Assembly (NCBI GenBank): GCA_020725425.1
Contig: DYFA01000008.1
Span: 27,993 to 91,992, forward strand
DNA from: Aneurinibacillus sp.
GTDB taxonomy: Bacteria; Bacillota; UBA5301; DYFA01
Length of the DNA: 64,000 nucleotides
Reading direction: 5' to 3'
Made by a program: the position numbers and the translations under genes. The notes beneath the pieces were generated by a model, which saw only the letters and a list, made by a program, of their open reading frames with translations, ran no database searches and was not told the DNA's origin. Below, one piece after another: positions 2,043 through 46,401 of this stretch. The first letter of the stretch is position 1, and each line of letters starts with the position of its first letter.

Positions 2043-3038
2043 CTAGAACCGCAGGGACAGCTCCGCTGAGGCTTGGTGGCGCCCTTCCGCCGGAGAGGGG
2101 CGGGCACCGAAGTTGATCAGCGTGTAGCTGGCTCGCAGGGCGGCGTCTTCACTCAGGCGATAGTCGAGGCGCAGGGAGAGCCCGGCGTCGGTCCGCGTGC
2201 TGGCGAGCGAGCCACCCTGACGCTTCACTTCGTACCCGGCCTTGAGCAGGGTCCCGCCGTTCAGAGCGATCTGCCCCCCGACGCCCATGGTCTGCGGGGT
2301 CGAACTGACGGCGGCCCCGGCCAGGCGGTCCACGTCGACCAGCCGATAGTGGGCCAAGACGTCGACCCGCTCTGGAACCAGAGGGACCGTCGCCACCAGG
2401 TCCACCGCGGGTTTCGGATCTGCTGCCGCTTCCTCCGGGCGGGGCAGGGTCTCCCCGGGTGGGACCAACCTCCCCGCCAGGCGGATCCCTCCCACCTCCG
2501 CCAGGTACGCCGAGTCGGTTTGGTCCTCCTGAGCCGGAAGGCGCACCTCCGGGATGGAGAGGCGCGGCCAGAAAGCTTTTCCGGCTGGCTGGCCGACGAT
2601 CACCTCACCCTCTGGCTGTCTCCGGATGGGGCTCACCCGGTAACGCTCGGCCAGCTCCGCCACACGCGAGTAAAGGCTGGCGGCGGGCCGGACCAGCGTC
2701 AGCGTGTCGGAGAGGCGCAGGCGGGAAGAGGCAGGCCGCAAACCCGAAAGACCTGAAACAGCGGTCAACGCCACCGCCGATAGACCCCGGGTGGCTTCGG
2801 CTTCCGGGACAAGCGCGGTGCCTGGGCCGGCGTTCTGGAGCGCCAGGCGACCCAGGCTCTGCCGATCGCCGACCACGACTGGCCGGTCGACCAGCGCAGG
2901 AGCTGCCCGGAGGACCCCGGTGAAAGAAGCGTCGCCGGTGCGGGGGGAAAGAAGCGGGAGCGCAGCCGCCGCCGGCGCCGGCCGGACGGCCAGTGCCAGG
3001 AAGCTGGCAAGGATCATCGCCACGGCCTTGCCCCGCAT
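2043..3038 (-). CDS. Secreted protein with signal peptide and C-terminal Phe (...AELSLRF), candidate outer-membrane β-barrel protein
   Basis: N-terminal MRGKAVAMILASFLALAVRPAPAAA resembles a signal peptide. The C-terminal region has alternating hydrophobic residues and ends in F, as in OMP β-signals. No recognisable family. Confidence 0.45.
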   Translation of the reverse strand: MRGKAVAMILASFLALAVRPAPAAAALPLLSPRTGDASFTGVLRAAPALVDRPVVVGDRQSLGRLALQNAGPGTALVPEAEATRGLSAVALTAVSGLSGLRPASSRLRLSDTLTLVRPAASLYSRVAELAERYRVSPIRRQPEGEVIVGQPAGKAFWPRLSIPEVRLPAQEDQTDSAYLAEVGGIRLAGRLVPPGETLPRPEEAAADPKPAVDLVATVPLVPERVDVLAHYRLVDVDRLAGAAVSSTPQTMGVGGQIALNGGTLLKAGYEVKRQGGSLASTRTDAGLSLRLDYRLSEDAALRASYTLINFGARPSPAEGRHQASAELSLRF

Positions 3039-3067
3039 GCCCTTCTCCCCTTTCCCGATAAAATGGA

Positions 3068-3116
3068 GGCGGGAAGTCGCTTGAGTTCCCTGGTTCCCTC
3101 AAACGCCCTTCCCGCC
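3068..3116 (-). terminator. Hairpin (9-bp stem GGCGGGAAG / CTTCCCGCC, 31-nt loop) followed in minus-strand sense by CCATTTT; possible terminator or attenuator between the DUF3084 gene and the OMP-like gene
   Basis: Inverted repeat read directly from the sequence. The U-tract is short. Confidence 0.25.
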
Positions 3117-3308
3117 GGCAATGCCACTGGCCGCAGTGTAGGTGCTGGTGCGATCCCCGGTGCGAGTGTGCTGCGACTGAGCTGCGTCCCCTGGTGTCTG
3201 GCGTAGTGCGTCTGTGCGGTGTGTGCCAGTGACCGGTGCTTGCTGTTATGTTAACTTCACCGCCGATCCCGGATCTCCTGCCCGGGTCGGCCGGTAATGG
3301 CTGGCTGC

Positions 3309-4562
3309 TCAGGGACGGCTTTCCGGGCGGAGCTCCAGCCGGACCTGGAGCGGGCCCGCCGCCGACCAGGTGTCGTTCTGAGCCACCGCCTGGACGGTCA
3401 CGGTACCGGCATAGGTGCGGATCTTGTTGATCGTATCGGGAATCTCCGTCCAGTTGGTGGTTCGCCCCACCGTCCCCTCGGCGGTCGTCACCATCCCCTG
3501 CTGGATGGCCCGCTCGTTGACGTCGGAAAGCAAGGCCAGGATCTCGAGGAGCATCTGATCCGGTGAGAGAGCGGTGTCGATCCGGCGCGAGGCGATCACC
3601 TCGTCCTTCCGGAAGATGCGCTGGTTCCGGAAGAGCTGGAAGTAGACCGGGACGGGGTTGCCGACCAGGGTGTTGGTGTAGGAGATGGCCCGTACCACGA
3701 CCCGCTCGTCGGTTCCGGCGATCAGCTCCGCCGCCTGGTTGAAGTGCTCCGGCACCACCTGGAGCGCGGTCTGCTTCCCCTCGATCTTCGCTCCCCGCTT
3801 GCGGGCCGCCTCGTCGGCCGGCCCGTTCAGGAAGGCCAGGAGGTCCTTCTTGACCGCCTCGATCGGCCGCCCGCCCTGAATGACCGTGGAGAGCACGATC
3901 TCGTCCGCCCGGTAGGCCACGTTGCCGAAGAAGAGGTCGGTCCGGAGGTTGGAGATCTCCGCCTCGAGCTTGCCCTTCTCCCGAGTCAGGCTCTCCACCT
4001 GCTTGGTAAGGTCATCCACCGCTTTGGCCAGCGGCGCCGCCAATTCCTTCAGCCGGTCGACCCGGGCCTTCTCGAAGCCGTAGTCGCTGATCACCCGGGT
4101 GTACTCGCCCTGGATCTGCTCGAGCTGGTTTTTGACCTTCTTCAACGCTTCGTCCACCGCGCTGCGCTGATTCAACACCGCTTGGAACTGCTGGTTCAGA
4201 GTGTCGTACTCGGAGGTCCGGGTGGCGATCTCCATCTCCAGCTCGCGGGCGCGTCTCTGCTTCTCGGCGATCTCGGCGTCCTTCAGGCGGAGTTCCACCT
4301 GGTTGCGGGCGAGCGTCTCCTGGAGCTGCTTCATGGAGAAGAGGGCCGTCCGGACGTCGGCCGAGACGACGGCCATGACGGCCAGCGTGCTGCCGGCGAT
4401 CAGGATGCCGGTGATCACCGTGATCACAACCGAGGTGTGCCGGGGGCGCAAACCGAAGAGGGTGAGCCGTTTCCGCCCCACCTTCCGCCCGATCATGTCC
4501 CCCAGCCAGGCGATCAGCCCTCCGGTGACCACCAGCACCAGGATCAGGAATATCCCGTACAA
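3309..4562 (-). CDS. DUF3084-family membrane-anchored coiled-coil protein
   Basis: N-terminal TM (IFLILVLVVTGGLIAWLGDMIGRKVGRKRLTLFGLRPRHTSVVITVITGILIAGSTLAV) followed by a long coiled-coil matches the DUF3084 architecture found in cyanobacteria and Firmicutes. Confidence 0.55.
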   Translation of the reverse strand: MYGIFLILVLVVTGGLIAWLGDMIGRKVGRKRLTLFGLRPRHTSVVITVITGILIAGSTLAVMAVVSADVRTALFSMKQLQETLARNQVELRLKDAEIAEKQRRARELEMEIATRTSEYDTLNQQFQAVLNQRSAVDEALKKVKNQLEQIQGEYTRVISDYGFEKARVDRLKELAAPLAKAVDDLTKQVESLTREKGKLEAEISNLRTDLFFGNVAYRADEIVLSTVIQGGRPIEAVKKDLLAFLNGPADEAARKRGAKIEGKQTALQVVPEHFNQAAELIAGTDERVVVRAISYTNTLVGNPVPVYFQLFRNQRIFRKDEVIASRRIDTALSPDQMLLEILALLSDVNERAIQQGMVTTAEGTVGRTTNWTEIPDTINKIRTYAGTVTVQAVAQNDTWSAAGPLQVRLELRPESRP

Positions 4563-4590: not shown

Positions 4591-5742
4591 TCACTTCCGG
4601 GCCCGGATCACGAGGACCAGCCCCACCGCGGCCAGGAGCGCGTCGGGCCCGAAGGCCGCGATCGCCGGCGGGAGCGTCCCCCCCTGCCCCAGGGCGGTGA
4701 AGAGCGTCATCACCACGTAGTAAGCAAAGATGATGATCACCGCCAGCCCGAAGCCCACGGAGGTCGCCCGGCGGTGGTGCTGGATACCCAGCGGCACCCC
4801 TACCCAGGCGAAGATCAGGCTTACCAGGGGGGTGGCGAAGCGCAGGTAGTACTGGACCGAGAACTCCTTGAAGCGGTCATGGGCCGGCCCGAGCAGCGTC
4901 ATCTGCTGGCGGAGCTCGGCCATGGTCATCGTCTCGGGGCTCTTCTGAGCCCTCGGGATATCCTCCGGCCGCTCCTTGAGGGCCACCCGCTGCTTTCCAC
5001 CCCGGAAGGCCACCTCCGTCACCTGCCCCTTTCCCTGAGGCCCCGAAAACAGATACGTCTTCCCGTTTCGGAAGTACCACCCGTCGGTCTCCCAGACGAG
5101 GGCGTCGGCCGTGGTCTGGCGGAACGGTTCCCCGTCCCGCCACTCGAGCATGGCCACGTTGTGCATGGTAGCCGTCGCCCGGTCGAAGTCAGTGGCGTAG
5201 ATGAACCGGATCAGCCGATCCCCCTCGAAGTCCCGCAGCATCACGTTCTTGGTGACCCGGGGCAGCTCCCCTCCGTTGATCTCCTCAATCATCACCCGCT
5301 GCATCTCACTGTTGGCCCATGGTACCAGCCGCTCGTTCATCCCCAGAGTCACCGCGACCACCAGCGCCCCGATGACCAGGACCGGCGCCATCAGCCGGTA
5401 GAAGCTCACCCCACTGGCCCGCATCGCCACCAGCTCACAGGTCGAGGAGAGCCGGGAGAGCCCGAGGAGTGTCCCCAAGAGCACCGCCATCGGGAAGGTC
5501 CAGACCATGATCTGGGGCAGCTTCAGAAGGAGCAGACGCACGGCGGAGTCCACCGGTGCGCCTCCCGTCACCAGGCTGGCGAGGTTCACCAGTTCCCCGC
5601 CGACAAAAAGGGTGGTGAAGGCGGCCACGCCGTACAACAGCGGCCCCATCACCTGAAGGAAGATGTACCAGTCGAGCGTCCGCAGCGGCCTCCGAAGCCC
5701 TCGCGGCTGCCGCTCCGCGCTGCGCGGCTGCGCCGTCGTCAT
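4591..5742 (-). CDS. lptF: LPS export ABC permease, LptF/LptG (YjgP/YjgQ) family
   Basis: 383 aa, [17 protein letters not shown]..., with N- and C-terminal TM clusters and a central periplasmic domain. It overlaps the lptB stop by 4 nt. Confidence 0.85.
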
Positions 5743-6458
5743 AGTGAGAATTTCTCTCCCAGGTAGACCTGGCGGGCCCGGGGGTCGTTGGCGATCGCCT
5801 GGGCGTCCCCGTCCGCCAGGATCTGTCCCTGATGCAGGATGTAGGCCCGGTCGGTGATAGCCAGCGTCTCCCGGACGTTGTGGTCGGTGATCAGGACTCC
5901 CAGCCCCTTGGCCCGGAGGTAGGCGATGATCGCCTGGATGTCCGCCACGGCGATGGGGTCCACTCCGGTGAAGGGCTCGTCGAGCAGCAGGAAGGAAGGG
6001 GCGGTGGCCAGGGCCCGGGCGATCTCAGTGCGGCGCCGCTCGCCGCCGGAGAGCACCCCGCCCCTCACGCCCCGGACCTTCTCCAGGTTGAACTCAGCGA
6101 GGAGCTCCTCGAGGCGTCCCTTCCGCTCCGCGCCGGTCAGGGGCGTCACCTCGAGCACGGCGCGGAGGTTTTCCTCGACCGTGAGCTTGCGGAAAATCGA
6201 CGGTTCCTGGGCCAGGTAGCCGATCCCCAGCCGGGCTCTCCGGTACATCGGCAGGTGGGTGATGTCTCGGCCGTCGAGGGAGATATGGCCGCCCTCGGTC
6301 GGCTCGAGGCCGACGATCATGTAGAAGGTGGTGGTCTTCCCGGCGCCGTTCGGCCCGAGCAGGCCGACCACCTCGCCTGGCCCCACCGAGAGCGAGACCC
6401 GGTCCACCACCCGCCGCCGGCGGTACGTCTTCACCAGGTTTTCGGCCACCAGGGCCAC
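5739..6458 (-). CDS. lptB: LPS export ABC transporter ATP-binding protein
   Basis: [51 protein letters not shown]... [28 protein letters not shown] has the canonical LptB N-terminus and motifs. Confidence 0.9.
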
Positions 6459-6461
6459 GCT

Positions 6462-7061
6462 CTACTCCCCCTTCTCCCCGGCCTGCTCCACCGGGACGGT
6501 CACCCGGGAGCCTCCCTGAGCCTTGATCTTCGATCCGGCCAGGAAGAAGACGATCTCCTTGCCCCGCAACACGTTGCCGTCCGAGCGCACCTCAGGGTCC
6601 CCGCTCAGCACCACCTGCCGCTCCTTGCTGTCAAAGAACGCCGCGGCGGCGGTGGCGACGGCCTTGCCGGAGACGAGCCGCACCTCGCCCTGGGCCCGGG
6701 CCGTCCGGGCCTTCAGGTCGCAGGTCAACGTCCGGGCGGTCAGGACGAACCGGTCAGGCTCGGACTGCTCCAACCGGACTCCACCCTCCACCTTGACCTG
6801 CCCTGTCGCCTCGGCGTACTCCAACCGCTCACCGCTCAAGGTCAACCTGCCGCTGACCAGGGTAGCCGGCGCTCCGGACCCGCCGGTCACCACGCTGACC
6901 CGGCGGTTCACGTCGTATTCGACGGTCTCGCCGGAGAGTTCAACGGTCTCTCCGGCCGCCGCCCCCGGGCCGGCGGCCGCCGCCAGGGCCAGGAGGAGCA
7001 CCCCGAGCGGCGTCAACCAACGCCACTTCCTCATCCCTGCATCCCTCGCTGCCTCCTTCAT
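6462..7061 (-). CDS. lptA: LptA (OstA-N fold periplasmic LPS-bridge protein)
   Basis: Signal peptide, then repetitive β-jellyroll-like sequence (GETVELSGETVEYDV...GEVRLVSGKAV...VVLSGDPEV). It sits between lptC and lptB as in lptCAB operons. Confidence 0.7.
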   Translation of the reverse strand: MKEAARDAGMRKWRWLTPLGVLLLALAAAAGPGAAAGETVELSGETVEYDVNRRVSVVTGGSGAPATLVSGRLTLSGERLEYAEATGQVKVEGGVRLEQSEPDRFVLTARTLTCDLKARTARAQGEVRLVSGKAVATAAAAFFDSKERQVVLSGDPEVRSDGNVLRGKEIVFFLAGSKIKAQGGSRVTVPVEQAGEKGE

Positions 7062-7705
7062 CCCTGTCCCCCGGAGAAACGCACCCCGCCCGTGGCCCGG
7101 ACCCGCTTCAAGGCCAAGTCGCCCTGGATCTCCGGTGCCTGGAGCGTGGTCAAGCCGCGAGTGAAAGTCACCTGGCGGCCGGCGGCGCCCGTCGCCCGAA
7201 ACTCCTCCCGCCCTGCCTCCCAGCGCAGCGTCTCCGCCTTGAGGGAACCCCCGTTGCTGGCGGAGAGGGTCACCCCTCCATTGAAGACCAGCGCCTGGCT
7301 GCCGGACTCGAGCAGACCCTTCTCCGCTGTGAGGCGGGTGACCGTCCCGTCGGAGTTGTAATATGCCGCCTCAACACCGGTCAACCAAACCTCGCCGGTC
7401 CCGGTGGCCGATTCCGCCTGGGCCAGACTCAGTTCCCAGGCCACCCGGCCGGTAGAGGGGTCGATCACTCTCAGGCGCGTGGCCTGGAATTCGAAACCCG
7501 GCACTTTCGCTGTGGAGGAGCGGGAGGCGGGCCGGCGGTGGACTGGCCGCTGCTCCCGCCTCAGACCGGTCCGGACCAGGTTTCCCAGGACAGCCAGAAC
7601 CAGCGCCACGCCGAGAGCCACAAGCCAGGAGAGCGCCCGCCGCCCGGAAGGACCCACAACCTCACCCACTCGCCAGGATAGACGTTCGGCACCATTATAA
7701 CACAC
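7058..7705 (-). CDS. lptC: LptC-like membrane-anchored LPS transport protein
   Basis: Single N-terminal TM (LSWLVALGVALVLAVLGNLV) plus a ~150-aa β-rich periplasmic domain, immediately upstream of lptA-lptB. Confidence 0.55.
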   Translation of the reverse strand: MCYNGAERLSWRVGEVVGPSGRRALSWLVALGVALVLAVLGNLVRTGLRREQRPVHRRPASRSSTAKVPGFEFQATRLRVIDPSTGRVAWELSLAQAESATGTGEVWLTGVEAAYYNSDGTVTRLTAEKGLLESGSQALVFNGGVTLSASNGGSLKAETLRWEAGREEFRATGAAGRQVTFTRGLTTLQAPEIQGDLALKRVRATGGVRFSGGQG

Positions 7706-7779: not shown

Positions 7780-8697
7780 ATGAGCACCAAGCCCGTGCTG
7801 GAGGCCAGCGTCGTCATCCCCACCTACAACCGGCGCGAGTTTCTCCGGAAGTGCCTGCTTTCCCTCTTTGAGCAGACAGCCCCCGGGGACTCTTATGAGA
7901 TCGTGGTGGTGGACGACGGTTCGACTGACGGGACCGGCGACCTGGTGGCCGAGTTGTCCTCGCAGGCGCCTTGTCGCGTCTTTTGCCAGCACCAGCCGAA
8001 CTCAGGCCGGGCCCGGGCGCGCAACGCCGGTATTCGGGCCGCCCGCGGGCGGATCATCATTTTCCTCGACAGCGACATGGTGGTGGACGAGGGATTCATC
8101 GCCGCCCACCTGCGCTGCCAAAAGGAGCCGGGACGCATCGTCCACGGCCAGGTGATCAACACCCCGGACTTCTCCGACCCCCGCCTGGCCAAGCCGAAGT
8201 TGACCGACTACTCCCGGGCCTTCTTCGCCACGGGCAACGTCTCCGTCGAACGGGAGAAGCTCCTTGAAGCAGGACTCTTTTCTGAAGCGTTTACCGAGTA
8301 CGGCTGGGAGGACCTGGAGCTGGGAACCCGCCTGCGCCACCTGGGACTCGTGGCCGTCCGCTGCCCGGAGGCCCGGAGCTGGCACTACTTGCCCCGCTTG
8401 ACCTTTGCCCAGGTATCGTCGATTGTCCGGCGGGAGCGGGAGCGGGGCCACATGGCCGTCCTCTATTACCGGATGCACCCGGAGTGGCGGGTTAAGCTGG
8501 CCACCCTGCTCACCCCGGCGTTCTTCGCCTTGGACCGGTTGCTTTCCCTGGGACACTGGCCGGAGCGCCCCGCCACTCTGCGGCTCCTCGCCCGCCTCGA
8601 CCGGCCGGCGACCCATCTTCTCTTTCGGGCGCTGACCGCACTAGTGCGCAACCACGCTTACGCCGAGGGGTTGCGAGAAGGACTCGCCAGATACTAA
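7780..8697 (+). CDS. Family 2 glycosyltransferase
   Basis: VVIPTYNRREFLRKCLLSLFEQT...YEIVVVDDGSTDGT...IIFLDSDMVV shows the GT-A DxD signature. It is divergent from lptC. AAAGGAGGG lies upstream of the ATG at 7780 with a long spacer. Confidence 0.8.
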   Translation: MSTKPVLEASVVIPTYNRREFLRKCLLSLFEQTAPGDSYEIVVVDDGSTDGTGDLVAELSSQAPCRVFCQHQPNSGRARARNAGIRAARGRIIIFLDSDMVVDEGFIAAHLRCQKEPGRIVHGQVINTPDFSDPRLAKPKLTDYSRAFFATGNVSVEREKLLEAGLFSEAFTEYGWEDLELGTRLRHLGLVAVRCPEARSWHYLPRLTFAQVSSIVRRERERGHMAVLYYRMHPEWRVKLATLLTPAFFALDRLLSLGHWPERPATLRLLARLDRPATHLLFRALTALVRNHAYAEGLREGLARY

Positions 8698-8724: not shown

Positions 8725-9516
8725 CTAAAGGCGTATCGCCTCAGCCAGCGCGATCAGGGGCGCGGTAGCCAGGGGCGTCATCGCTACCTTCCCCTTCCTG
8801 AGAAGCTTCGGGCCCTCTCCGGCAGCGCACTCCTCGACTTGCAGCGAGACCACCCTGGTCCGGTCCGGGCGGGGGCTGATCTCCAGGCTGATCCCGACGG
8901 AGCCGGCCTCCAGCGGCGTCCTGTGCTCCGCCCGGTCCGTCGGGTCCGGTCGGTCCGCCAGATCCAGACGGGCGAGCAGCCATGACCTGACTGTGACCCC
9001 TAAGCCGTCTGAGTCGGGCAGGACCATCCGAAGGAAGTCCAACAGGGCAGCCAGCCTCCGCTGCCCGTCCGCCTCATTCAGGACAACGTTGAACTGGACC
9101 CGGCTGACCATAGGTTTGGGGCCAGCGAGGCAGACGTCCGCGGCCAGCTCGTGGCAGTATCCGGTCACACTGAACCAACCTTTCCCCACCCGGTCTTCGA
9201 CCGGCTTCTTGAAAGCGAAGCCGCGCTCGCGGAGGGCCGCCTGGAGCGCCTCGCCCGTGACCCCCAGGCTGTTGGCCTTCCCGGCGTCCCGCGGAGGCTG
9301 AACGTCCGGGTGATACCACTCCGCCGGCAAGGCCGCAAACGTGTGGCCTGGGAAGACCATGGCGAGTTCCTGGGTCGCTCGCCGCGTCTTCGGCGTCCGC
9401 GACCGAACGTAGAGGGTGACGTGCCTCTCCTCGATCCTCAGGTGTTCCAGGTTGTGGGGGTCGAAGCGGCTGAAGACGCGGGCTACTTCGTCCGGGAACT
9501 GGCCATAACCATTTCT
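8725..9516 (-). CDS. Hypothetical protein (263 aa after start refinement to MRNGYGQFPDE...)
   Basis: The ORF-track start at 9669 was replaced by the ATG at 9514-9516, which is preceded by GGAGGG. No family recognised. Confidence 0.45.
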   Translation of the reverse strand, partial: RNGYGQFPDEVARVFSRFDPHNLEHLRIEERHVTLYVRSRTPKTRRATQELAMVFPGHTFAALPAEWYHPDVQPPRDAGKANSLGVTGEALQAALRERGFAFKKPVEDRVGKGWFSVTGYCHELAADVCLAGPKPMVSRVQFNVVLNEADGQRRLAALLDFLRMVLPDSDGLGVTVRSWLLARLDLADRPDPTDRAEHRTPLEAGSVGISLEISPRPDRTRVVSLQVEECAAGEGPKLLRKGKVAMTPLATAPLIALAEAIRL

Positions 9517-9545
9517 CATCGATAAACCCTCCGCCATCAAAAGAT

Positions 9546-10961: not shown

Positions 10962-12062
10962 TCATACCCGGGCGACCACTTCCCCGGGGCGCAGGATGGA
11001 CCCGGCGGCCACCTCCGCCGCGGCCTCGACGACGCAGGTGTCCGAGAGGACGCTCCCCTCGCCCACCGCCGCGCCGGGTTCGATCCGGCAGCCTTGGCCG
11101 AGCACGCACTGGGACACCCGGCTCCCCGCTTCCAGCACCGCCCCGGCCCACACGACACTCGTCTCCACCACGGCACCTTCCCCCACTACCACGCCCGGGC
11201 CGAGCACCACGTCGCCGAGGAGCTTCGCCCGGGGAGCGACCCGGGCGCCGTCACCCACCACCACCCGACCCTGCACCAGCGCCTGAGGGGAGACCTCCGC
11301 CCCGCGCCCGAGCACCAGCGGCCGGTCCTCCCCGGGCAGGACAACCCCCGGCGTGTAGAGGCGGACCGCCCCCTGCAGGATATCCTGGTGGGCCAAGCGG
11401 TACTGTTGCAGGGTGCCCACGTCGCACCAGTAGCCGTGCATGCGGTAGCCGTAGAACGGCCGCCCTTCCGCCACGAGGCGTGGGAAGAGCTGCTTGCCGA
11501 AGTCGTAGAACTCCCCGGCCGGGATCAGGTCGAGAACCCCGCGCTCGAAGAGGTAGATGCCGGTGTTGGCCAGGAGCGACAGGGCCTCATGGGGCTCCGG
11601 CTTCTCCTGGAACCCGGTGATGCGGCCGTCCGGAGCAGTCACCACCACGCCGAAGTGGCGCGGATCGGACACCGAGCGGAGGGCGATCGTCGCCAGCGCC
11701 CCCCGTTGCCGGTGGAAGGCCAGCATGGCGCTAAGATCGATGTCGGTCAGGGCGTCGCCGGCGATGACGAGAAAGGTGTCGCTGAGGAAATCGGCTACTT
11801 TCTTGACCCCGCCGGCCGTTCCCAGGAGCTCCTTCTCCCGGGAGTAGACCAGGTTCATCCCGAACCGGCGGCCGTCTCCGAAGTGCTCCACGATGCTCTC
11901 CGGCCGGTACCAGAGATTGGCCACCACCTCGCGCACGCCGTGGTACCCCAGCAGGGCCAGAATGTGCTCCATCGCCGGGCGGTTCACGATCGGCACCATC
12001 GGCTTGGGCAGGTTGGCGGTCAGGGGATCGAGGCGGGAGCCGACGCCAGCCGCCAGGATCAT
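10962..12062 (-). CDS. Sugar-1-phosphate nucleotidyltransferase with C-terminal left-handed β-helix (GlmU/GMP-like)
   Basis: MILAAGVGSRLDPLTANLPKPMVPIVNRPAMEHIL (NTP_transferase G-x-G-x-R-L) plus C-terminal hexapeptide repeats. The start is set at the internal ATG at 12062; the ORF-track start at 12140 remains possible. Confidence 0.8.
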   Translation of the reverse strand: MILAAGVGSRLDPLTANLPKPMVPIVNRPAMEHILALLGYHGVREVVANLWYRPESIVEHFGDGRRFGMNLVYSREKELLGTAGGVKKVADFLSDTFLVIAGDALTDIDLSAMLAFHRQRGALATIALRSVSDPRHFGVVVTAPDGRITGFQEKPEPHEALSLLANTGIYLFERGVLDLIPAGEFYDFGKQLFPRLVAEGRPFYGYRMHGYWCDVGTLQQYRLAHQDILQGAVRLYTPGVVLPGEDRPLVLGRGAEVSPQALVQGRVVVGDGARVAPRAKLLGDVVLGPGVVVGEGAVVETSVVWAGAVLEAGSRVSQCVLGQGCRIEPGAAVGEGSVLSDTCVVEAAAEVAAGSILRPGEVVARV

Positions 12063-12152
12063 CGCCCTGAGCCCCCGCAACCCCCCCGGTCCGTGCGGTG
12101 TAAGGCGCCTTTCGGTTGCCACACGCAGTCCCCCCTCCATCTGTTCCCGCGG

Positions 12153-33583: not shown

Positions 33584-34231
33584 TCAAACCGAGGCCCGGA
33601 ACTCTCGGACGACGCGGGCCAACATCCCCCGGAGCCGCCGGATGGCCCGCTTCTCCAGCCGATGAAGATAGGAGACGCTGATCGCCAGCTCCTCCGCCAC
33701 CCGGCCCGGCTCCTGATCCTGCAGGTAAACGGCGGAGAGCACCCTTTGTTCCTTTTGGGGAAGGCGGGCGACAGCCACTTGGAGGAAATGGCGGACGTCG
33801 CCGGCTTCCGCTCGGGCCACCGGGTCGGATTCGGCGCCCGCCGCGACCATGGCGGCAATGGCCAGCTCACCGGAGCCCATCTGTTCCAGCGAGACGTCCC
33901 CGGCTCCGGCCTTCTGCCGGCCGAAGTAGTCCAGCATCCGGCCGCGGATGCGGTGTTGGGCAAAAGAGGGGAAGGGCACCCCGCGGTCGGGGTCGTATGC
34001 TTCCACCGCCTCGATGAGGCCGACGGTCCCTTCCTGGATGAGGTCCATGGCGTTTTCCGGCCCGGCGCCCAGCGCCAGGGCGATTCGGACCACCAGGATC
34101 TGGTACCCTTCGATCAACCGGTAACGGCTCTCGGGGTCCCCGCTCCCCTTGAACGAGCGCCACAACACCGCTTCCTCCTCCGGCGAGGGCGGTTTCCGAC
34201 TATTCAGGTGGCGGAGATACTCGTCCAACAT
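33584..34231 (-). CDS. Sigma-70 family RNA polymerase sigma factor (group-3-like region 2 and region 4)
   Basis: DLIQEGTVGLIEAVEAYDPDRGVPFPSFAQHRIRGRM (region 2.2-2.4) and AEELAISVSYLHRLEKRAIRRLR (region 4.2 HTH). Confidence 0.8.
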   Translation of the reverse strand: MLDEYLRHLNSRKPPSPEEEAVLWRSFKGSGDPESRYRLIEGYQILVVRIALALGAGPENAMDLIQEGTVGLIEAVEAYDPDRGVPFPSFAQHRIRGRMLDYFGRQKAGAGDVSLEQMGSGELAIAAMVAAGAESDPVARAEAGDVRHFLQVAVARLPQKEQRVLSAVYLQDQEPGRVAEELAISVSYLHRLEKRAIRRLRGMLARVVREFRASV

Positions 34232-39287: not shown

Positions 39288-41342
39288 CTAAGGGTCGCGC
39301 CGCGGCCTCTCCCACCGCGGGGCGGGAGGGGGTTTGAGCGGCGGCTCCGTCGTCCCTCCCGGCCCGATCTCGATCTGCACTTCCGCTCCACCCAGGACGA
39401 CGTAGGGCAGCGCCAGCCGTGCTTTAGGGTTGGACCGTTCCTGGTGGTTTGACTGGACAGCCGGGGCTTTCCCGGTGCGCCGGGCCGGGGGGTGTCCGGG
39501 AGGCTTGGCCGGTTCGGAGACCGGCTCTCCTTGAGCGTCCTCCCCGTTTTCCCCCGCCCGGACCAGTTCCGCCACCAGTTCGTGATTGCGGTCCCGCCGG
39601 ACGAACTGGTCAATCAGGGCCTCGAAGCTCTCGGCGTTGGTTTTGGGTTCCTGGATCTTGTCGGGACCCTTCGCCGGTTTCTCGGGGTTGGGCGGATGGC
39701 CCCCGTCGGCAGGAAGCGACTCCTCCTCCTCTTCGCCGGCGGCGGCGGTTCCCCCGCCGCGCACCGCCACGACGAACCGGCCGGCCGGAAAGTCCGCCGG
39801 CACCGGCAGGAGGATGCGTTCCCGGCGCACTTCGCCCCGGTAGGGGCGGATCAACACTTCCAGCTCAGCCGACTCCCCCGGCTTCACCGGGCGATCCGGT
39901 ATCAGCCGGACCTTTTCGATCACCCCGGTTCGCCGCTCCTCGCCCACCCGGGCCGAGAGCTCCACCTGGCGCAGGCTCACCGGCCGGAAGGGGTTCCTGG
40001 TCACCAGGGCCACCCCGCTGACCAGATCCCGCAAGGCGGTCGCGGCGATATCGGCCGGGCTGTAGAACGTGTTCTCCCGGGTGACCGCGCCGCCTGGCAA
40101 GCCGTCGCCCCGCATGGTCAGACGCACCTCGGCCGTCCCCCGCCCGATGCGGGTCAGTCCCCGGTCCATCGCCTGCAGAGCGGCCAGCGCCACCAGGTTG
40201 GTCGCCAGCACCTCGTCCGGCGCCACCATGGCCGTGAAGGTCGTCTTTTCGCGCCGGTCCAGGTCCTCCACGTTAACCTTGACCTCGATCCCCGGCGCAC
40301 GGACGGCCAGTTTCCCCGCCACCCCCGCCGGCCGGTCTTCGAGCAACATCCCCGCGAACTGCCGGGGGGCTCCCAGCTTGAACGGGGCTTCCTGGCTCCT
40401 GACCGTCTGGTAGATCTCGGCCAGGCTCACCGGCAGCTCGACCCGCCCCTTGTTCAGGAAGGGGTGGCCGAAACCAACGAAGTAGTCGTCCTCCGTATAG
40501 GTCACCGTGCCGATGGCAGTGACCGAGAGGTCTCCGGTAACCAGGGCGGCGCCGAAGGCGCTCCCTGGAACGAGCTGGCCCGGCGCGGCATCGGTGGACT
40601 CCGCTCCTTTTGGTCCTGCACTGGTCGGCAGGCGGCCGCCCAGCTCCACCCGGTAACCCAGCGGCTCCACCAGGTTTTGCAGCCGCCGGAAGACCCGCTC
40701 GCTCGCTCCCGAGACCAGAAGCGGGGTGGCCAGGGGGGTGGCTGGCGGTAGCGCCAGCGAACCGTCCGGCCTGGCTGTTATGACCTCAGGCAGGGTTTCT
40801 TCAGCGCTCTCTCCCGGCTTGGTGGCGCTTTCGCCCCGGGCGCGGGCCAGAGCCAACACGTCCAGCATCCGCTCGATCGGGGTGAGGAAGCCGACGCGAT
40901 GGTCGCTGAAGGAGAAACCATAACTGACGGCGCCGATCAGCCGGCCGCCCACGTATACCGGGCTGCCGCTCATGCCGGCGGCGATGCCTCCGGTCTCCTC
41001 GATCAGGGGCCCGCCGACTCTCACCAGGATGAGGTCGCCCACCGGCCCGGCATTCGGCACCACGCCGAGGATCTCGACGTCGAAGGGTTCGACCCTTGTT
41101 CCCCGGATGACGGTCAGCCCGGTGCCTTTCATCCCGGCCCGGACCTCCGCCAGCGGCATGATGCTGCGCTGCTCCGGGGCCTGCGCCTCGGCCCGGTTTC
41201 CGGGCGCTCCGGAGAGCCCGACCAGCAAACCGAGGACGGCGACCAGGAGCAAGCCGGCAACGCGCCTTTTCGACCACGGGCGAGACGCGTCCGAGGGCAG
41301 ACGATTCGTAAGCCATTCCTCCCTGCGCGCGGCGTGGGACAA
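39288..41342 (-). CDS. spoIVB: SpoIVB-family (peptidase S55) sporulation serine protease with a long low-complexity C-terminal extension
   Basis: PDZ-like N-region (GMKGTGLTVIRGTRVEPFDVEILGVV), S55 core motifs (GIAAGMSGSPVYVGGRLIGAVSYGF; GTVTYTEDDYFVGFGHPF), then about 200 aa rich in E/P/G/K. Confidence 0.7.
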   Translation of the reverse strand: MSHAARREEWLTNRLPSDASRPWSKRRVAGLLLVAVLGLLVGLSGAPGNRAEAQAPEQRSIMPLAEVRAGMKGTGLTVIRGTRVEPFDVEILGVVPNAGPVGDLILVRVGGPLIEETGGIAAGMSGSPVYVGGRLIGAVSYGFSFSDHRVGFLTPIERMLDVLALARARGESATKPGESAEETLPEVITARPDGSLALPPATPLATPLLVSGASERVFRRLQNLVEPLGYRVELGGRLPTSAGPKGAESTDAAPGQLVPGSAFGAALVTGDLSVTAIGTVTYTEDDYFVGFGHPFLNKGRVELPVSLAEIYQTVRSQEAPFKLGAPRQFAGMLLEDRPAGVAGKLAVRAPGIEVKVNVEDLDRREKTTFTAMVAPDEVLATNLVALAALQAMDRGLTRIGRGTAEVRLTMRGDGLPGGAVTRENTFYSPADIAATALRDLVSGVALVTRNPFRPVSLRQVELSARVGEERRTGVIEKVRLIPDRPVKPGESAELEVLIRPYRGEVRRERILLPVPADFPAGRFVVAVRGGGTAAAGEEEEESLPADGGHPPNPEKPAKGPDKIQEPKTNAESFEALIDQFVRRDRNHELVAELVRAGENGEDAQGEPVSEPAKPPGHPPARRTGKAPAVQSNHQERSNPKARLALPYVVLGGAEVQIEIGPGGTTEPPLKPPPAPRWERPRRDP

Positions 41343-41446: not shown

Positions 41447-41839
41447 TTACTGGTCGAGGTGGCTCAGGACGAGGGTGGCCAGGCCGATTCCGCCCGCCTC
41501 CGCCATCTTGGTCGCGTAAGCCTGGGTGAGGAAGTCCCGGTAGATGTCGCCCGCCAAGCCCCCGGGGAGGAATGACCCCGGCCCCTGGCTGATTGTGCGC
41601 CACATCTGCTGCCAGAGCAGGTTCAGAAACACCCCTTCGAGGTCGCGAGCGGCCTGTCGGGCTGCCGCCTCGTCCAGGGTGGAGGTCTGGTTCCCGGTCT
41701 CAGCCCGAGCCAGAGCCGCGGCAAAGCCGGGAGACGGGCTGAGGCTGCGCCACGCCGTTCCCGCCAAAGGCGCGAGGGGCCGGAACTGCAAGCTGGAGAG
41801 CGAAGTCAACGGCGCCAGGTCACGGGCCACCCAAGCCAC
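41447..41839 (-). CDS. flgJ: Flagellar rod-binding protein (FlgJ N-terminal-domain-like)
   Basis: DLEGVFLNLLWQQMWRT...GDIYRDFLTQAYATKMAEAGGIGLA resembles rod-binding domain motifs. It is directly upstream of flgI. Confidence 0.55.
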   Translation of the reverse strand: MAWVARDLAPLTSLSSLQFRPLAPLAGTAWRSLSPSPGFAAALARAETGNQTSTLDEAAARQAARDLEGVFLNLLWQQMWRTISQGPGSFLPGGLAGDIYRDFLTQAYATKMAEAGGIGLATLVLSHLDQ

Positions 41840-41842: not shown

Positions 41843-42985
41843 CTAGATGATCTCCAGTTCGCCATGGAGCGCCCCGGCGGCCTTGACCGCCTGCAGGATC
41901 GCCACCACGTCCCGCGGCGTCGCCCCGAGGGCGTTCAGCGCCTTCACCAGGTCAGCCACGCTGGTCCCCCCGCCGAGGGTGGTGAAGCGGGCCTGCTCTT
42001 CTCCGGCGATGATTCCGGTTTCCGGTGTCACGACCGTCCGGCCCTCGGACAGGGGTTCCGGCTGGGAGACCTTCGCCCCCGCGGTGATCCGGATGGACAG
42101 GCTCCCGTGGGCCACCGCCACCGGAGAGATGGTGACGTTCTGCCCCATGACGATCGTCCCGGTCCGCTCGTTCACCACGACCCTGGCCACCACGCCCGGT
42201 TTCACCGGCAGTTCGCTCAAGGCAGCGATGAACTCGACCGGCCGGGCCTCGTAGGCCACCGGCACCGTCACCGTGACCGTCCCCTTGTCGACCGCCCGGG
42301 CCGATTCGGGGGCGAAGGCCTGGTTGATCGCCTGCGCCACCCGGGCAGCCGTCGTGAAGTCGGGCTGGTGAAGCACCAGCGTCAGGAAGTCGTTCGCCAC
42401 GGCGTTGGGTACCTCCCGCTCGACCAGCGCCCCGCCCGGCACGATCCCGACTGTCGGGTGGTTCTTCTGGATTTTGCTTCCGCCCGACCCAGCGTTGAAT
42501 CCTCCGATCGAGACGGGGCCCTGGGCCATAGCGTAGATCTCCCCGTCCACCCCTCGCAGCGGGGTGAGGAGGAGGACGCCTCCTTGCAAGCTCTTGGCGT
42601 CGCCGAAGGAGGAGACAGTCACATCGAGCTGGTCGCCGGTGCGGGCGAAGGCCGGCAGGTCCGCCGTGACCATCACCGCCGCCACGTTCTTCACCCGTAG
42701 CTGGGCGGCGGGCACGCTCACCCCGTACCGGGCCAGAGCATTCGCCACCATCTGCACGTTGGCCATCGTCCCGGCCGAGTCGCCCGTCCCCTCGAGGCCC
42801 ACCACCAATCCCAGGCCGCTCAGTTGGTTCGGGCGGTCGTTGGCAATCCGGGCCAGGTCCTTCAGCCGGGTCACAGGGACTTCCGCCGCGCTTGCCCCGG
42901 CCGCGGCCAGCAGCACGGCCGCCATCACCGCCGCGACCGCCGTTCGTCTCCGACTACCAACCCTGCCCTCTCTTCCCAGGTTCAT
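41843..42985 (-). CDS. flgI: Flagellar P-ring protein
   Basis: Signal peptide; NQLSGLGLVVGLEGTGDS...; 380 aa. Confidence 0.9.
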   Translation of the reverse strand: MNLGREGRVGSRRRTAVAAVMAAVLLAAAGASAAEVPVTRLKDLARIANDRPNQLSGLGLVVGLEGTGDSAGTMANVQMVANALARYGVSVPAAQLRVKNVAAVMVTADLPAFARTGDQLDVTVSSFGDAKSLQGGVLLLTPLRGVDGEIYAMAQGPVSIGGFNAGSGGSKIQKNHPTVGIVPGGALVEREVPNAVANDFLTLVLHQPDFTTAARVAQAINQAFAPESARAVDKGTVTVTVPVAYEARPVEFIAALSELPVKPGVVARVVVNERTGTIVMGQNVTISPVAVAHGSLSIRITAGAKVSQPEPLSEGRTVVTPETGIIAGEEQARFTTLGGGTSVADLVKALNALGATPRDVVAILQAVKAAGALHGELEII

Positions 42986-42998: not shown

Positions 42999-43649
42999 CT
43001 AGAACAGCCAACTGAAGATGCGGCTCAGGATGCCCGGCTTCTGCTTGTCCCCGACCACCCCGTCACCCAGATAGATGATCTCGGCGTTAGCCACGAAGGT
43101 GGAAAGGACTGTGTTGTCCCGGCTGATGTCCTCCGGCCTCACCTGCCCCCGGAGCTTGATCGTCTGGTGTTCCTTGTTGACCGTGATGGCCTGAACCCCC
43201 TCCACCACCAGATTCCCGTTGGGGAGCACCTCGCTGACCACCACGGTCATTTTGGCGGAGAGGGACCCGCCCCGGGTAGTGGTGCCGGACGCAGTCAGGT
43301 TGTCGCCGCCCTTGGCTTTGATCTCCGGAAAGAAGCTAAGGAAGCCCAGCCCCGGCCCGGCGGACACGCCGGCCTCCTTCTTGTTGCTGCTCGAGGCCTT
43401 CTGGTTGGCCTCCGCCTTCTCCACGATGATGATCGTCAGCAGGTCCCCCGGCGCCTTGGCCCGGTGGTCGCTCAGCAGGTCGTTGCCGGGAGCCGCCTTG
43501 CTCCAGAGCGAGCCGTTGGCCGCCCCGGCCGCCTGGACCGTCCGTACCGCCGGCGCCCACCCGGCCAGCAGCGCGGCGACCACCACGACTATCCACCGCA
43601 CCGGCCGACCCCTCCGAAACGCGCTCATTTTGACCCCTCCCGACCTCAC
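42999..43649 (-). CDS. flgH: Flagellar L-ring protein
   Basis: SLWSKAAPGNDLLSDHRAKAPGDLLTIIIVEKAEANQ... and ...GNLVVEGVQAITVNKEHQTIKLRGQVRPEDI are canonical FlgH. Confidence 0.85.
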   Translation of the reverse strand: MRSGGVKMSAFRRGRPVRWIVVVVAALLAGWAPAVRTVQAAGAANGSLWSKAAPGNDLLSDHRAKAPGDLLTIIIVEKAEANQKASSSNKKEAGVSAGPGLGFLSFFPEIKAKGGDNLTASGTTTRGGSLSAKMTVVVSEVLPNGNLVVEGVQAITVNKEHQTIKLRGQVRPEDISRDNTVLSTFVANAEIIYLGDGVVGDKQKPGILSRIFSWLF

Positions 43650-44665
43650 AGCCCGGCCGCCGGCCCGCCGTCGAGGGCGATCAGGACCTCGCCCGGTCCC
43701 CGCACGACGCCGGACACCGTCCGGTTGGACTGCAGATTCTGCACTCTTATCACTTCACCAGCGCCGCCGGCCTCCAGAGCCATCCCCGGCACAGCAAGGA
43801 CCAGCCCGCCGGCCTCCACGGTCACGGTGACCCGGTCACCCCGCCGGACGACCACCGGCACCATCACGTCACTCCGCCGTAATGGGGCGCCGGCCGGAAT
43901 CGACCGGACTGTCTGCCGCCCCACCGCCTGCTCCTCCGTCCGCAGCGCCCCGTCCGGCAGCCGGGTCAGCTCGATCTCCACCACGCCCACCTGGCCGGGC
44001 TGAATCACGCTGCCCCGGGCGAGACCTTCCCGGGCGACCACCGCCGGGACCTTGACTGCCACCAGCGCCCGTGGACGCAGAGTGGCGTGGGGCTCGCCGT
44101 CGACCACGAGGTCCACTGGGCCGATGAGCGTGCCGGTGGCCGCCGCCCGGGCGATCTGTCCTACCTCCCCCAGCACACACAGTCGGAGGTCGCCCTCGGG
44201 CACCACCGGGTCGACCCAGTTGACCAGCGTCAGCGCCACCCGGCCGGCCTCCACGCCGAGCAGCCGGGCGATCTCCTCCCGGTAGAGCCGCTCGGCCTCC
44301 TCCCGGCAGAGCAGCCGCCCGGGCCGTTTCACCGCCACGCCCTCGCTCCCGGTCAACACCACCTTCTCCGGGTCGAAGCCGGCTTGACGCAGCCGGGTGG
44401 TGATCTGCTGCCGGGTGAAGACCCGGACCTGTCCCGGCCGGGGAGCCTGACCCAGAACCACGGCGGCAACCTCTTCCGCCACCGCTTCGCCGCGGCTCTG
44501 AGCGATGTCGCCGAGCCGAACCTGTACCCCGGCCACCACGGCCTCAGCCGGGAGGTCCACTGTCAGGGCGAAGGCGGGGGCCCAGGCCAGGAGCGCCATC
44601 AGCGCCCCGGCAGCCGCCGCCGGTAGCCGCCTCACCCCTCTGCCCAGGTCCGCCCGGCCGTTCAT
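43646..44665 (-). CDS. flgA: Flagellar P-ring assembly chaperone FlgA
   Basis: Signal peptide, SAF-type C-terminal domain (VLALDGGPAAG end), overlapping flgH. Confidence 0.7.
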   Translation of the reverse strand: MNGRADLGRGVRRLPAAAAGALMALLAWAPAFALTVDLPAEAVVAGVQVRLGDIAQSRGEAVAEEVAAVVLGQAPRPGQVRVFTRQQITTRLRQAGFDPEKVVLTGSEGVAVKRPGRLLCREEAERLYREEIARLLGVEAGRVALTLVNWVDPVVPEGDLRLCVLGEVGQIARAAATGTLIGPVDLVVDGEPHATLRPRALVAVKVPAVVAREGLARGSVIQPGQVGVVEIELTRLPDGALRTEEQAVGRQTVRSIPAGAPLRRSDVMVPVVVRRGDRVTVTVEAGGLVLAVPGMALEAGGAGEVIRVQNLQSNRTVSGVVRGPGEVLIALDGGPAAGL

Positions 44666-44688
44666 CGCCGCTCACCTCTCAGCGCCGC

Positions 44689-45477
44689 TCATCGCTTCAG
44701 GTTGTTGGCCACCTGGAGCATGTCGTCGGAGGCCTGGATCGCCTTGGAGTTGGTCTCGTAGGCTCGCTGGGCGACGATCATGTTGACCATCTCCTCCACC
44801 ACCTGGACGTTGGAGGACTCGATGTACCCCTGAGCGATGGTGCCGAACCCCGGCTGGCCGGGCGTCCCGACGATCGCTTCGCCCGAGGCGGCGGTGGGGC
44901 GGAAGAGGTTCCGGCCCATGGCCAGAAGCCCCGCCGGATTGGTGAAGCGGGCGATCTGGATCTGCCCCAGTTGCTGCGGGGCCGCGTCCCCCGCCAGGAG
45001 GACCGATACCGTCCCGTCGTTGCCGATGGAGATCTCGGTCGCCTCAGACGGGATGACCAGCTCCGGCTCGAGCGGGAAGCCGTCCGAGTTCACCATCCGG
45101 CCTGTGCCGTCCCGTTTGAAGGCGCCGTCCCGGGTGTAGGCCACGGTGCCGTCGGGCATCACCACCTGGAAGAAGCCGTCGCCCTCGATCACCATGTCCA
45201 GGGGGTTGTCGGTCGGGCGAAACTCGCCGACCGTGAAGATCTTCTGCGTGGCCACCGGGCGGACGCCCTGACCCACCTGGATCCCGACCGGCACGGTGGA
45301 ACCCTGGACCACCTGTCCGCCGGCGGCCCGCAACGTTTGATAGAGCAGGTCCTGGAAGTCCACCCGGTTTCGCTTGAACCCGTTGGTGTTCACGTTGGCC
45401 AGGTTGTTGGCGATGGTGTCGATGTTGAGTTGCTGGGCCATCATGCCCGAGCCTGCGGTGAACAGCGAACGAATCAT
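44689..45477 (-). CDS. flgG: Flagellar basal-body rod protein FlgG (FlhP-like)
   Basis: [47 protein letters not shown] and the C-terminal ...[26 protein letters not shown] rod signature. Confidence 0.9.
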
Positions 45478-45633
45478 GACGAGACCCTCCCCGGTTGTTC
45501 GTCAGAACCGGCGGAGGGCGAGCGGCTGCGTCCGTCGTTCGGCAGCCGGATGGCCTCGACCCCTCGCAGGGTCGTCCAGCCCGTCTTCTCCCCTCTGTCC
45601 GGTTCCTTCTGGAGCTCTGCTAAGACGTCGCTT

Positions 45634-46401
45634 CTATACGCGGCCCACCTCGTTGACCGCCTTCTGCATCAGCTCGTCCTCCATCTGGATGAGCCGCTGG
45701 TTCGCCTCGTAACTCCGCACCGACGCGATGAGACCGATCATCTCCCGGACAGTGTTCACGTTGGAGCGCTCGATGAACCCCTGGTGCACCTCTGTCCCGG
45801 CGTCCACCGGCTGCCCGGCCGCTGCCGTGGCGAACAGGTTGTCGCCCTCCTTGACCAGCCGGCTCCCCTGCGGGAAGCGGACCAGCCTCAGGCGGTCCAC
45901 CACTTGGCCGTCCACCGCGACCGTCCCGTCAGCCGCCACCTGGACCTCGCCGTCGCCCAGCTCGATCGGACCCTGCTCACCCAGGACGGGGAAGCCGCCC
46001 TCAGTCACGAGAAGCCCTTCGCCGTTCCGGGTGAAAGCACCGTCCCGGGTGTACCGGAGGCCGTTGGGCGTCTGGACGACAAACAACCCTTCCCCGGCGA
46101 TCCCCAGATCCAGAGGATTGCCGGTCGCGGTGAGCGGCCCCGGCGCCCAGTCGGTGGCGGTCTCTGTCGCTACCGCCCCGAGGCTCAACGGTCCCACCAC
46201 GGGCGGGTATCCGGCCGGGCCCATCCCCGGGCTGGCGGCGTCGTTGTAGCGGCGCAGGAGGAGGGCGGGGAAGCTCTCCCCCACCAGCTCGTCCCGCTTG
46301 AATCCGTTGGTGGTGACGTTGGCCAGGTTGTTGGCGATCACGTCGGTGCGGCGAAGTTCGACGAGCATCCCGGACGCTCCGATGTAGAGCCCGCGAATCA
46401 T
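45634..46401 (-). CDS. flgF: Flagellar basal-body rod protein FlgF (FlhO-like)
   Basis: [40 protein letters not shown] ... SVRSYEANQRLIQMEDELMQKAVN. Confidence 0.85.
   Translation of the reverse strand: MIRGLYIGASGMLVELRRTDVIANNLANVTTNGFKRDELVGESFPALLLRRYNDAASPGMGPAGYPPVVGPLSLGAVATETATDWAPGPLTATGNPLDLGIAGEGLFVVQTPNGLRYTRDGAFTRNGEGLLVTEGGFPVLGEQGPIELGDGEVQVAADGTVAVDGQVVDRLRLVRFPQGSRLVKEGDNLFATAAAGQPVDAGTEVHQGFIERSNVNTVREMIGLIASVRSYEANQRLIQMEDELMQKAVNEVGRV

Follow-up and report, generated by a model that had tools for sequence, protein, structure and literature searches.

Positions 1539 to 46401 of the 64,000-nucleotide stretch analysed here (the window; contig DYFA01000008.1, positions 27,993 to 91,992) carry genes for outer-membrane (OM) biogenesis and flagellar genes, directly beside a set of sporulation genes. 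The region is very probably a vertically inherited OM cluster of a diderm member of the Bacillota, from an uncultured, high-GC lineage near to, and not nested in, the labelled Limnochordia. A diderm Firmicute OM cluster with sporulation genes is what a sequence-only reading of this DNA had proposed, and the proposal is borne out by Bacillota-labelled identical proteins, by GroEL, by the sporulation markers SpoIIID and SpoIID and by gene order shared with known loci.

Of the 39 genes in the cluster, 38 lie on the minus strand; the exception is a glycosyltransferase of family GT2. The right end at 46401 is as first drawn, whilst the left end lies not at 2043 but with a RuvX-like gene at 1539 (Table 1). 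Coding sequence occupies 96% of the cluster and 11 intergenic gaps exceed 60 bp, with sizes of 74-270 bp. The GC content, put at about 70% by the sequence-only reading, is indeed high but measures 0.678 for the whole window and 0.687 for the cluster. Reading frames were picked by third-position GC (GC3), which is 0.78-0.94 in every real gene but one, the exception being a value of 0.72 taken across the overlong open reading frame (ORF) 26031-27338. All frames were profile-scanned against Pfam and key frames also against NCBIfam. LpxA, LpxB, LpxC, LpxD, FabZ, LptB, both LptC copies and, marginally, BamA pass NCBIfam equivalog cutoffs; LpxI, LptF/G, Skp, TamB and FlgA/H/I pass Pfam gathering scores. 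The predicted colinearity of lpxABCDI, fabZ, skp, bamA, tamB and flgA/H/I is thus confirmed, all on the minus strand. The lptABCDFG set is recovered in part, with LptB, LptC, LptF/G and LptA-like proteins present and LptD recognized by its N-terminal domain. A chimeric assembly was considered and is excluded by the uniform GC and GC3 and by the junction with the sporulation genes, which the eight loci examined, from relatives and reference genomes, all keep.

Read in the direction of transcription, from high to low coordinates, the cluster starts with flgF, flgG, flgA, flgH, flgI, flgJ and a gene for an S55-domain peptidase, followed by tamB, a sigma-70-family gene, genes for a 232-aa bitopic protein, BamA and a 432-aa protein, and skp. 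Then come a long coiled-coil protein, lpxD, a small putative OM protein, lptF/G, an lptD-like gene, an lptC paralogue and an lptA-like gene. This second Lpt block is succeeded by an 824-aa membrane protein, an ABC ATPase, lpxC, fabZ, lpxA, lpxI and lpxB, next an LpxB-like gene, a sugar-1-phosphate nucleotidyltransferase, a TIGR03492 LpxB-related gene, an unknown gene and the plus-strand GT2. The low-coordinate end holds lptC, lptA-like, lptB, lptF/G, DUF3084, a putative OM protein and the RuvX-like gene.

The murA-spoIID-M23-spoIIID-mbl-flhO/flhP flank described from the sequence stands, in both families and positions. The SpoIIID protein is 65-99% identical to those encoded by the spoIIID copies of related and reference loci. 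In the M23 protein an N-terminal membrane helix is combined with a LytM domain missing part of the metal-binding motifs; this architecture and the gene's position between spoIID and spoIIID are those of SpoIIQ, although the Bacillus-type SpoIIQ model gives 16 bits against a cutoff of 250. On the cluster side of the junction, flgA, flgH and flgI are grouped with flgF, flgG and flgJ in one block. A divergent groES-groEL pair lies beyond murA.

A large conserved locus of Negativicutes and Halanaerobiales was described by Antunes 2016 (PMC5007114). It combines lipopolysaccharide (LPS) synthesis and transport, with lpxI replacing lpxH and fabZ beside lpxC, and TamB, BamA and Skp; it also holds a flgAHI and flgFGJ block, OmpM and three conserved unknowns that include DUF3084/COG4372 and COG0816 (PMC5007114). 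According to a passage of PMC11456536 that cites Taib 2020, the cluster occurs in all 46 Limnochordia genomes analysed in that study. The window shares several of these features: lpxA, lpxC, lpxD, lpxI and lpxB are co-localized, fabZ adjoins lpxC, lpxI is present in place of lpxH, and lpt genes stand in one locus with tamB, bamA and skp. With respect to the conserved unknowns, DUF3084 is clear and the RuvX-like (COG0816) protein scores below its cutoff.

The comparison with Limnochordia, Halanaerobiales and Negativicutes clusters that the sequence-only reading had called for finds the same junction and order in L. pilosa, Orenia and Pelosinus. The L. pilosa HC45 locus (AP014924.1, ~3.245-3.267 Mb) runs atpC, one unknown, M23, spoIIID, mbl, flgF, flgG, flgA, flgH, flgI, two genes, S55, bamA, skp, one gene, lpxD and two genes that include a large unknown membrane protein, and ends with an ABC ATPase, lpxC, an NTP transferase and lpxA. 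It resembles the window in its high GC and in an S55 protein that groups with the window's, but identities are only 37-73%. Apart from an additional NAGPA gene and an atpC directly upstream, this stretch differs in having no murA, spoIID, tamB, sigma gene or SonA-like gene (the 432-aa protein). In Orenia metallireducens (LWDV01000010), which is low in GC, the order is atpC, DUF1694, murA, spoIID, M23, spoIIID, flgF, flgG, flgA, flgH, flgI, flgJ, S55, tamB, bamA, three skp-type genes and lpxD, and the stretch seen is, unlike the window, without mbl, the sigma gene and the SonA-like gene. Pelosinus sp. UFO1 (CP008852) has spoIID, M23, spoIIID, mbl, flgF, flgG, flgA, flgH, flgI, flgJ, two genes and S55, then mlaEFD, a TolC-type OEP gene, tamB and a sigma gene. 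The mlaEFD and OEP insert is not seen in our cluster; mla and TolC-type genes were not found in the 64-kb window. A non-flagellated Firmicutes metagenome-assembled genome (MAG; JACPQT01) presents atpBEFHAGDC, one gene, M23, spoIIID, S55, bamA, skp and lpxD. Four nearer MAG loci keep the window gene order exactly, and relatives retain both order and sequence, the latter at 56-93% identity. With proteobacterial FlgI loci the window has only the flg genes in common.

There are also differences in content. The published Halanaerobiales locus carries lpxK, waaA, kdsABCD, msbA and S-layer homology (SLH) proteins (PMC5007114), which the window does not, and Negativicutes, the group of Pelosinus, Acetonema longum and Veillonella parvula, have, unlike the window, several OmpM copies and 3-deoxy-D-manno-octulosonic acid (Kdo)/core genes in the locus. 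L. pilosa, Orenia and the JACPQT01 MAG place the atp operon upstream of the M23/spoIIID genes, again unlike the window. Here atpH and atpA are downstream of the cluster and we note that neither atpB, atpE nor atpF comes before them.

The backbone of the right flank also occurs, we assume, in B. subtilis, as atp, murAA, spoIID, spoIIQ, spoIIID, mbl, flhO, flhP and fabZ in the same order and orientation. B. subtilis presumably has no lpx, lpt, bamA, tamB or flgAHI and has kept fabZ near flhP. Such an arrangement is the monoderm state expected after cluster loss. The junction between sporulation and OM genes is, on the evidence of gene order, not special to this genome, and it would be ancestral to all three diderm Firmicute clades because the same order is found in the L. 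pilosa, Orenia and Pelosinus loci.

Might the junction nevertheless mark a dedicated operon for sporulation-coupled OM remodelling, a functional fusion specific to this organism? The genes share a strand with short gaps, no terminator signal above background separates spoIIID/mbl from the flg/OM genes (13 terminator-like sites were found against 9.9 expected from shuffled sequence), and in Acetonema the BamA, SonA and SonB proteins are up-regulated at germination (PMC13018214). However, the adjacency is common to all three diderm Firmicute clades, and the presence of SonA and SonB does not follow sporulation ability (PMC13018214). A scan of the whole window with the B. subtilis sigma-E consensus, allowing three mismatches or fewer, gave a sole match at 49997-50025 (-), 37 bp upstream of spoIID, where 0.25 matches are expected per window; the same scan gave none upstream of any OM gene. 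A sigma-70-like site, weaker than that of groES, precedes the sigma gene embedded in the cluster. The idea is weakened further if, as we take to be the case, the backbone is also that of monoderm B. subtilis. We consider a dedicated operon very unlikely. The adjacency that the sequence-only reading called 'fused' is real, but it is inherited synteny, present also in L. pilosa, Orenia and Pelosinus, and not a new functional fusion. As a separate observation, an AT-rich CATAT...CATATAGAT stretch precedes spoIIID, with four mismatches to the sigma-E consensus.

The host is a member of the Bacillota, judging by identical labelled proteins, GroEL neighbours and the SpoIIID and SpoIID equivalogs. 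Three window proteins have 100%-identical NCBI entries labelled 'MAG: ... [Bacillota bacterium]'. In the best 120 GroEL matches all named organisms are Bacillota except one 'Chitinophagales' MAG; identities are 79-82% to Moorella, 80% to Carboxydochorda and Limnochordaceae and 78% to L. pilosa. A different origin was envisaged, with the contig belonging to a classical Gram-negative phylum and its sporulation genes mis-called or horizontally acquired, and the closest public loci and proteins are indeed titled 'Betaproteobacteria bacterium MAG126' and 'Chitinophagales bacterium MAG147'. Those titles, and the GroEL exception, all derive from one BioProject, PRJNA950955, in which MAGs close to the window are called Betaproteobacteria, Chitinophagales and 'Methanocella sp.', the last on a 61%-identical POTRA/beta-barrel protein. 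The labels clash with each other and with gene content and are therefore not trustworthy. In addition, the window's own proteins are labelled Bacillota, as are the remaining named organisms in the best 120 GroEL matches, SpoIIID and SpoIID score above equivalog cutoffs, and the murA-spoIID-M23-spoIIID-mbl order is common to Orenia, Pelosinus and L. pilosa, whereas proteobacterial loci share flg genes only. A Gram-negative origin is extremely improbable, and the outcome that the sequence-only reading had named as fatal to its proposal falls away.

Within the Bacillota, the suggestion of a Limnochordia-like lineage holds in part. In neighbour-joining analysis of the S55 protein, 100/100 bootstraps divide the window group plus Limnochordia from Halanaerobiales plus Negativicutes, as do 99/100 once the sequences are recoded by Dayhoff-6 to dampen GC bias. 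This supports a position on the Limnochordia side for one cluster gene, the analysis being of single genes. L. pilosa is reportedly a Gram-negative spore-former. Cultured Limnochordia have GC contents of 69.5-71%, a range that the window value of 0.68 fits (PMC11456536).

If the proteins work like their E. coli or Negativicute homologues, as we infer, then LpxA, LpxC, LpxD, LpxI and LpxB would make the lipid A disaccharide (steps 1-5 of lipid A synthesis), with FabZ at the shared acyl-acyl carrier protein branch point. LptB2FG, LptC, the LptA-type bridges and the LptD-like protein would move the product to the outer leaflet, whilst BamA, Skp, TamB and the small SonA-like Omp85 paralogue would insert beta-barrel proteins. 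FlgA, FlgH and FlgI would supply the P and L rings and a Firmicute-type flagellar rod would cross the second membrane; OM genes directly after the rod genes flgF/flgG would represent the ancestral diderm Firmicute order. The block would be read as a few long transcripts. The organism presumably sporulates, the description 'endospore-forming' being drawn from three genes.

Several observations weigh against a Limnochordia-side, OM-bearing host with a working cluster. GroEL neighbour-joining, an analysis that is not decisive, puts the window group as its own clan between the labelled Limnochordia and Moorella, and not nested within the former. The existence of an OM is deduced here from genes. 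No member of the lpxK, waaA, waaM, kdsA-D or msbA families occurs in any ORF of the 64-kb window, so the LPS pathway seen there is partial. The LptD-like C-terminal barrel, LptF/G and LpxI fall below NCBIfam equivalog cutoffs. Finally, the window has no SLH match and thus no SLH-porin OmpM; what it has instead is two or three proteins with a signal peptide and a barrel-type C-terminus.

The absence of lpxK, waaA, kds, msbA and OmpM from 64 kb, together with members under equivalog cutoffs, could also be read as decay of the cluster in a lineage whose OM is being lost or is already gone. Against this, all ORFs are intact, with no frameshifts and a strong codon-position GC bias, order and sequence are conserved across relatives as described above, and the missing LPS genes may lie elsewhere in the genome. 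We judge decay to be very unlikely and retain the vertically inherited, intact cluster as the explanation. It is conceivable, though doubtful, that this lineage produces an unusual lipid A or glycolipid: its cluster has none of lpxK, waaA, kds and msbA, and holds instead a rare ABC transporter and three glycosyltransferases of LpxB type.

The S55-domain gene had been called spoIVB and placed on the flank. It is internal to the cluster, and the true left flank is atpH-atpA. The SpoIVB identity is rejected, with TIGR02860 giving 53.2 bits against a cutoff of 305 and with both architecture and position wrong. Pfam S55 covers profile positions 104-210 only, the alignment with PDB 9lnf spans just 97 residues, and no more than about 95 residues, in the serine-bearing (C-terminal) half of the domain, can be aligned with SpoIVB. 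Invariant in the family are GMSGSP, then FGHP approximately 165 residues later, and also GD. The serine motif precedes the histidine motif, which we take to be the reverse of the SpoIVB order. The AlphaFold2 (AF2) model has a pLDDT of 82 and pTM of 0.81. We take the protein to be a serine peptidase, probably active, whose family is not that of SpoIVB. Limnochordia (L. pilosa), Halanaerobiales and Negativicutes have homologues at the corresponding place in the locus, and the COG0750-type protease of the published locus is presumably this S55 protein.

The 432-aa protein has an AF2 model (pLDDT 79.8) with a signal helix, three beta-alpha-alpha-beta-beta units and then 10 strands, for which the best Foldseek matches are BamA, TamA and FhaC (E 1e-10). 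A word-based search detected 12 homologues, all lineage-internal. SonA of Negativicutes has three POTRA domains and a 10-stranded barrel and is encoded in the operon order sonB-bamA-sonA-skp1 (PMC13018214), which matches the 232aa-bamA-432aa-skp order of the window. The modelled fold, with three POTRA-like domains and a 10-stranded barrel, and the gene position fit a SonA-like protein. SonA has been reported so far in Negativicutes only (PMC13018214), and no gene is present at this position in L. pilosa, Orenia or the JACPQT01 MAG. No BamB-E family gave a match in any window ORF. The sigma factor encoded after tamB shares 40% identity with a Pelosinus UFO1 counterpart in the same position (20935-21573 of the Pelosinus stretch); the gene goes unmentioned in the OM-cluster papers reviewed.

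It is conceivable, though we hold it doubtful, that the window and a few relatives (a JGI 850-kb contig, the PRJNA950955 MAGs and two 'Bacillota' MAGs) form a deep diderm Bacillota lineage outside crown Limnochordales that keeps modules otherwise found only in Negativicutes. The modules may be the SonA-type mini-Omp85 between bamA and skp and the sigma factor with its membrane partner after tamB. If so, the Firmicute ancestor would already have had them in its OM cluster, with later losses in L. pilosa and Halanaerobiales.

The cluster has two LptC and two LptA-like genes. The lptD-like gene is a probable lptD on the basis of its N-terminal domain; the C-terminal 460 aa are beta-rich with no Pfam or PDB match, and a homologue adjoins lptF/G in the JACPQT01 MAG. 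The 824-aa protein belongs to a rare family (194 clusters in 1.84 billion representatives) in which 8/38 members show a weak BPD_transp_1 match and 5/38 are fused to ABC_tran; a PDB sequence search with this protein gave nothing significant. The same ABC pair precedes lpxC in L. pilosa (16860-19662 of its locus stretch). We also note that between 9725 and 14580 three GT19 (LpxB-type) genes, encoding LpxB, the LpxB-like protein and the TIGR03492 protein, stand in a row, with the nucleotidyltransferase between two of them.

Diderm Firmicutes are the main model for OM loss or retention, with the single large OM cluster as key genomic evidence. Finding the same junction in a further deep, high-GC lineage strengthens the case for an ancestral order and gives one more taxon from which modules such as SonA, the embedded sigma factor and the S55 peptidase can be dated. 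On its own the finding opens no new question; the source MAG is public and this type of cluster has been in the literature since 2016-2020. The parts most worth attention are the SonA-like gene, the embedded sigma gene, the ABC pair and the missing Kdo/core genes.

Table 1. Genes of the cluster and its flanks in window coordinates, with the supporting match or feature (TM, transmembrane helix).
Feature	Position (strand)	Evidence
atpA	3-845 (-)	True left flank, cut by window edge; ATP-synt_ab 156 bits
atpH	820-1452 (-)	True left flank; OSCP 149 bits
RuvX/YqgF-like (COG0816 type)	1539-1991 (-)	Left-most member; Pfam RuvX full-length alignment, 25.1 bits, gathering score 29.2
Putative OM beta-barrel protein	2043-3038 (-)	Signal peptide; C-terminal '...ELSLRF'; weak Porin_4 match, E 3e-3; no significant relative in PDB sequence search
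DUF3084 (COG4372) membrane coiled-coil protein	3309-4562 (-)	Pfam DUF3084 104 bits, cutoff 25
lptF/G	4591-5742 (-)	LptF_LptG Pfam 276 bits
lptB	5739-6458 (-)	TIGR04406 361 bits, cutoff 240
lptA-like	6462-7061 (-)	LptD_N/OstA Pfam 29.9 bits, cutoff 20.4
lptC	7058-7705 (-)	TIGR04409 43.6 bits, cutoff 38
GT2 family glycosyltransferase	7780-8697 (+)	Sole plus-strand cluster gene; Glycos_transf_2 113.6 bits; GC3 0.84
Unknown protein	8725-9519 (-)	GC3 0.79; Shine-Dalgarno-supported start at 9519; no Pfam or NCBIfam match
TIGR03492 LpxB-related	9725-~10933 (-)	326.6 bits, cutoff 219
Sugar-1-phosphate nucleotidyltransferase	10962-12140 (-)	NTP_transferase 175.8 bits
Second LpxB-like protein, 428 aa	12153-13439 (-)	LpxB-like Pfam 52.7 bits
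lpxB	13423-14580 (-)	293 bits, cutoff 190
lpxI	14577-15407 (-)	Both Pfam LpxI domains
lpxA	15497-16303 (-)	367 bits, cutoff 226
fabZ	16463-16912 (-)	176 bits, cutoff 113
lpxC	16896-17840 (-), start 17768 or 17840	231 bits, cutoff 187
ABC ATPase	17761-18645 (-)	ABC_tran 127 bits
824-aa membrane protein, ABC partner	18650-21124 (-)	1 N-terminal TM, large extracytoplasmic domain, 3 C-terminal TMs, EAA-like loop
lptA-like, second block	21195-21821 (-)	LptD_N Pfam 57.5 bits
lptC paralogue	21818-22717 (-)	TIGR04409 52 bits, cutoff 38
lptD-like	22582-24879 (-)	N-terminal 235 aa match PRK04423, E 1.6e-12
lptF/G, second block	24910-26037 (-)	LptF_LptG 281 bits
Putative small OM beta-barrel protein, ~279 aa	26031-26870 (-)	Signal peptide from 'MRGRWLAVAF...'; C-terminal '...GVTVQW'; no Pfam match
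lpxD	26924-28027 (-)	TIGR01853 335.5 bits, cutoff 242.5
Long membrane-anchored coiled-coil protein	28024-29241 (-)	Sequence features; position of Orenia's long OmpH-like paralogue
Skp/OmpH	29213-29677 (-)	OmpH Pfam 62.6 bits, cutoff 32.4
SonA-like mini-Omp85, 432 aa	29799-31097 (-)	Between bamA and skp
bamA	31132-32838 (-)	Omp85 161 bits; POTRA x3; TIGR03303 299 bits, cutoff 297
232-aa bitopic proline-rich protein	32879-33577 (-)	TM at residues 75-93; anti-sigma-like or SonB-like position
Sigma-70-family factor	33584-34231 (-)	Sigma70_r2 + r4; TIGR02937 83 bits, cutoff 43
tamB, 1605 aa	34359-39176 (-)	Pfam TamB 152 bits, cutoff 22.4
S55-domain serine peptidase	39288-41252 (-)	Inside cluster, between tamB and flgJ
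flgJ (rod-binding)	41447-41839 (-)	Rod-binding 44 bits
flgI (P ring)	41843-42985 (-)	447 bits
flgH (L ring)	42999-43649 (-)	176 bits
flgA	43646-44665 (-)	ChapFlgA 113 bits
flgG/flhP	44689-45477 (-)	Rod-protein domains
flgF/flhO	45634-46401 (-)	Rod-protein domains
mbl	46746-47759 (-)	MreB_Mbl 478 bits
spoIIID	47879-48133 (-)	TIGR02844 136.4 bits, cutoff 111.5
M23 peptidase (SpoIIQ-like)	48206-48934 (-)	M23 55 bits
spoIID	48965-49960 (-)	TIGR02870 324.7 bits, cutoff 234.75
murA	50069-51505 (-)	EPSP_synthase 339 bits

The window yielded neither a tRNA nor an Rfam family, and no meaningful tandem repeat. Two ORFs at the left end, 1453-2019 (-) and 1455-2069 (+), were tried as atpF and rejected for poor codon bias and lack of a family match, the real gene there being the RuvX-like 1539-1991. 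On the other side of the cluster, the region before groES (51499-51589, +) has a near-consensus sigma-70 promoter (TTGACA-16/18-TATATT) followed by a perfect copy of the controlling inverted repeat of chaperone expression (CIRCE) at 51539-51565 and a second, degenerate copy at 51563-51589. A multihaem c-type cytochrome gene adjoins groEL (53636-55012, -). At the right edge (61947-64000, -) are an ArnT/PMT_2-type GT-C glycosyltransferase and a fragment that is GT2-like by eye, with no family match; these are possibly a polyprenyl-phosphate-sugar modification pair.

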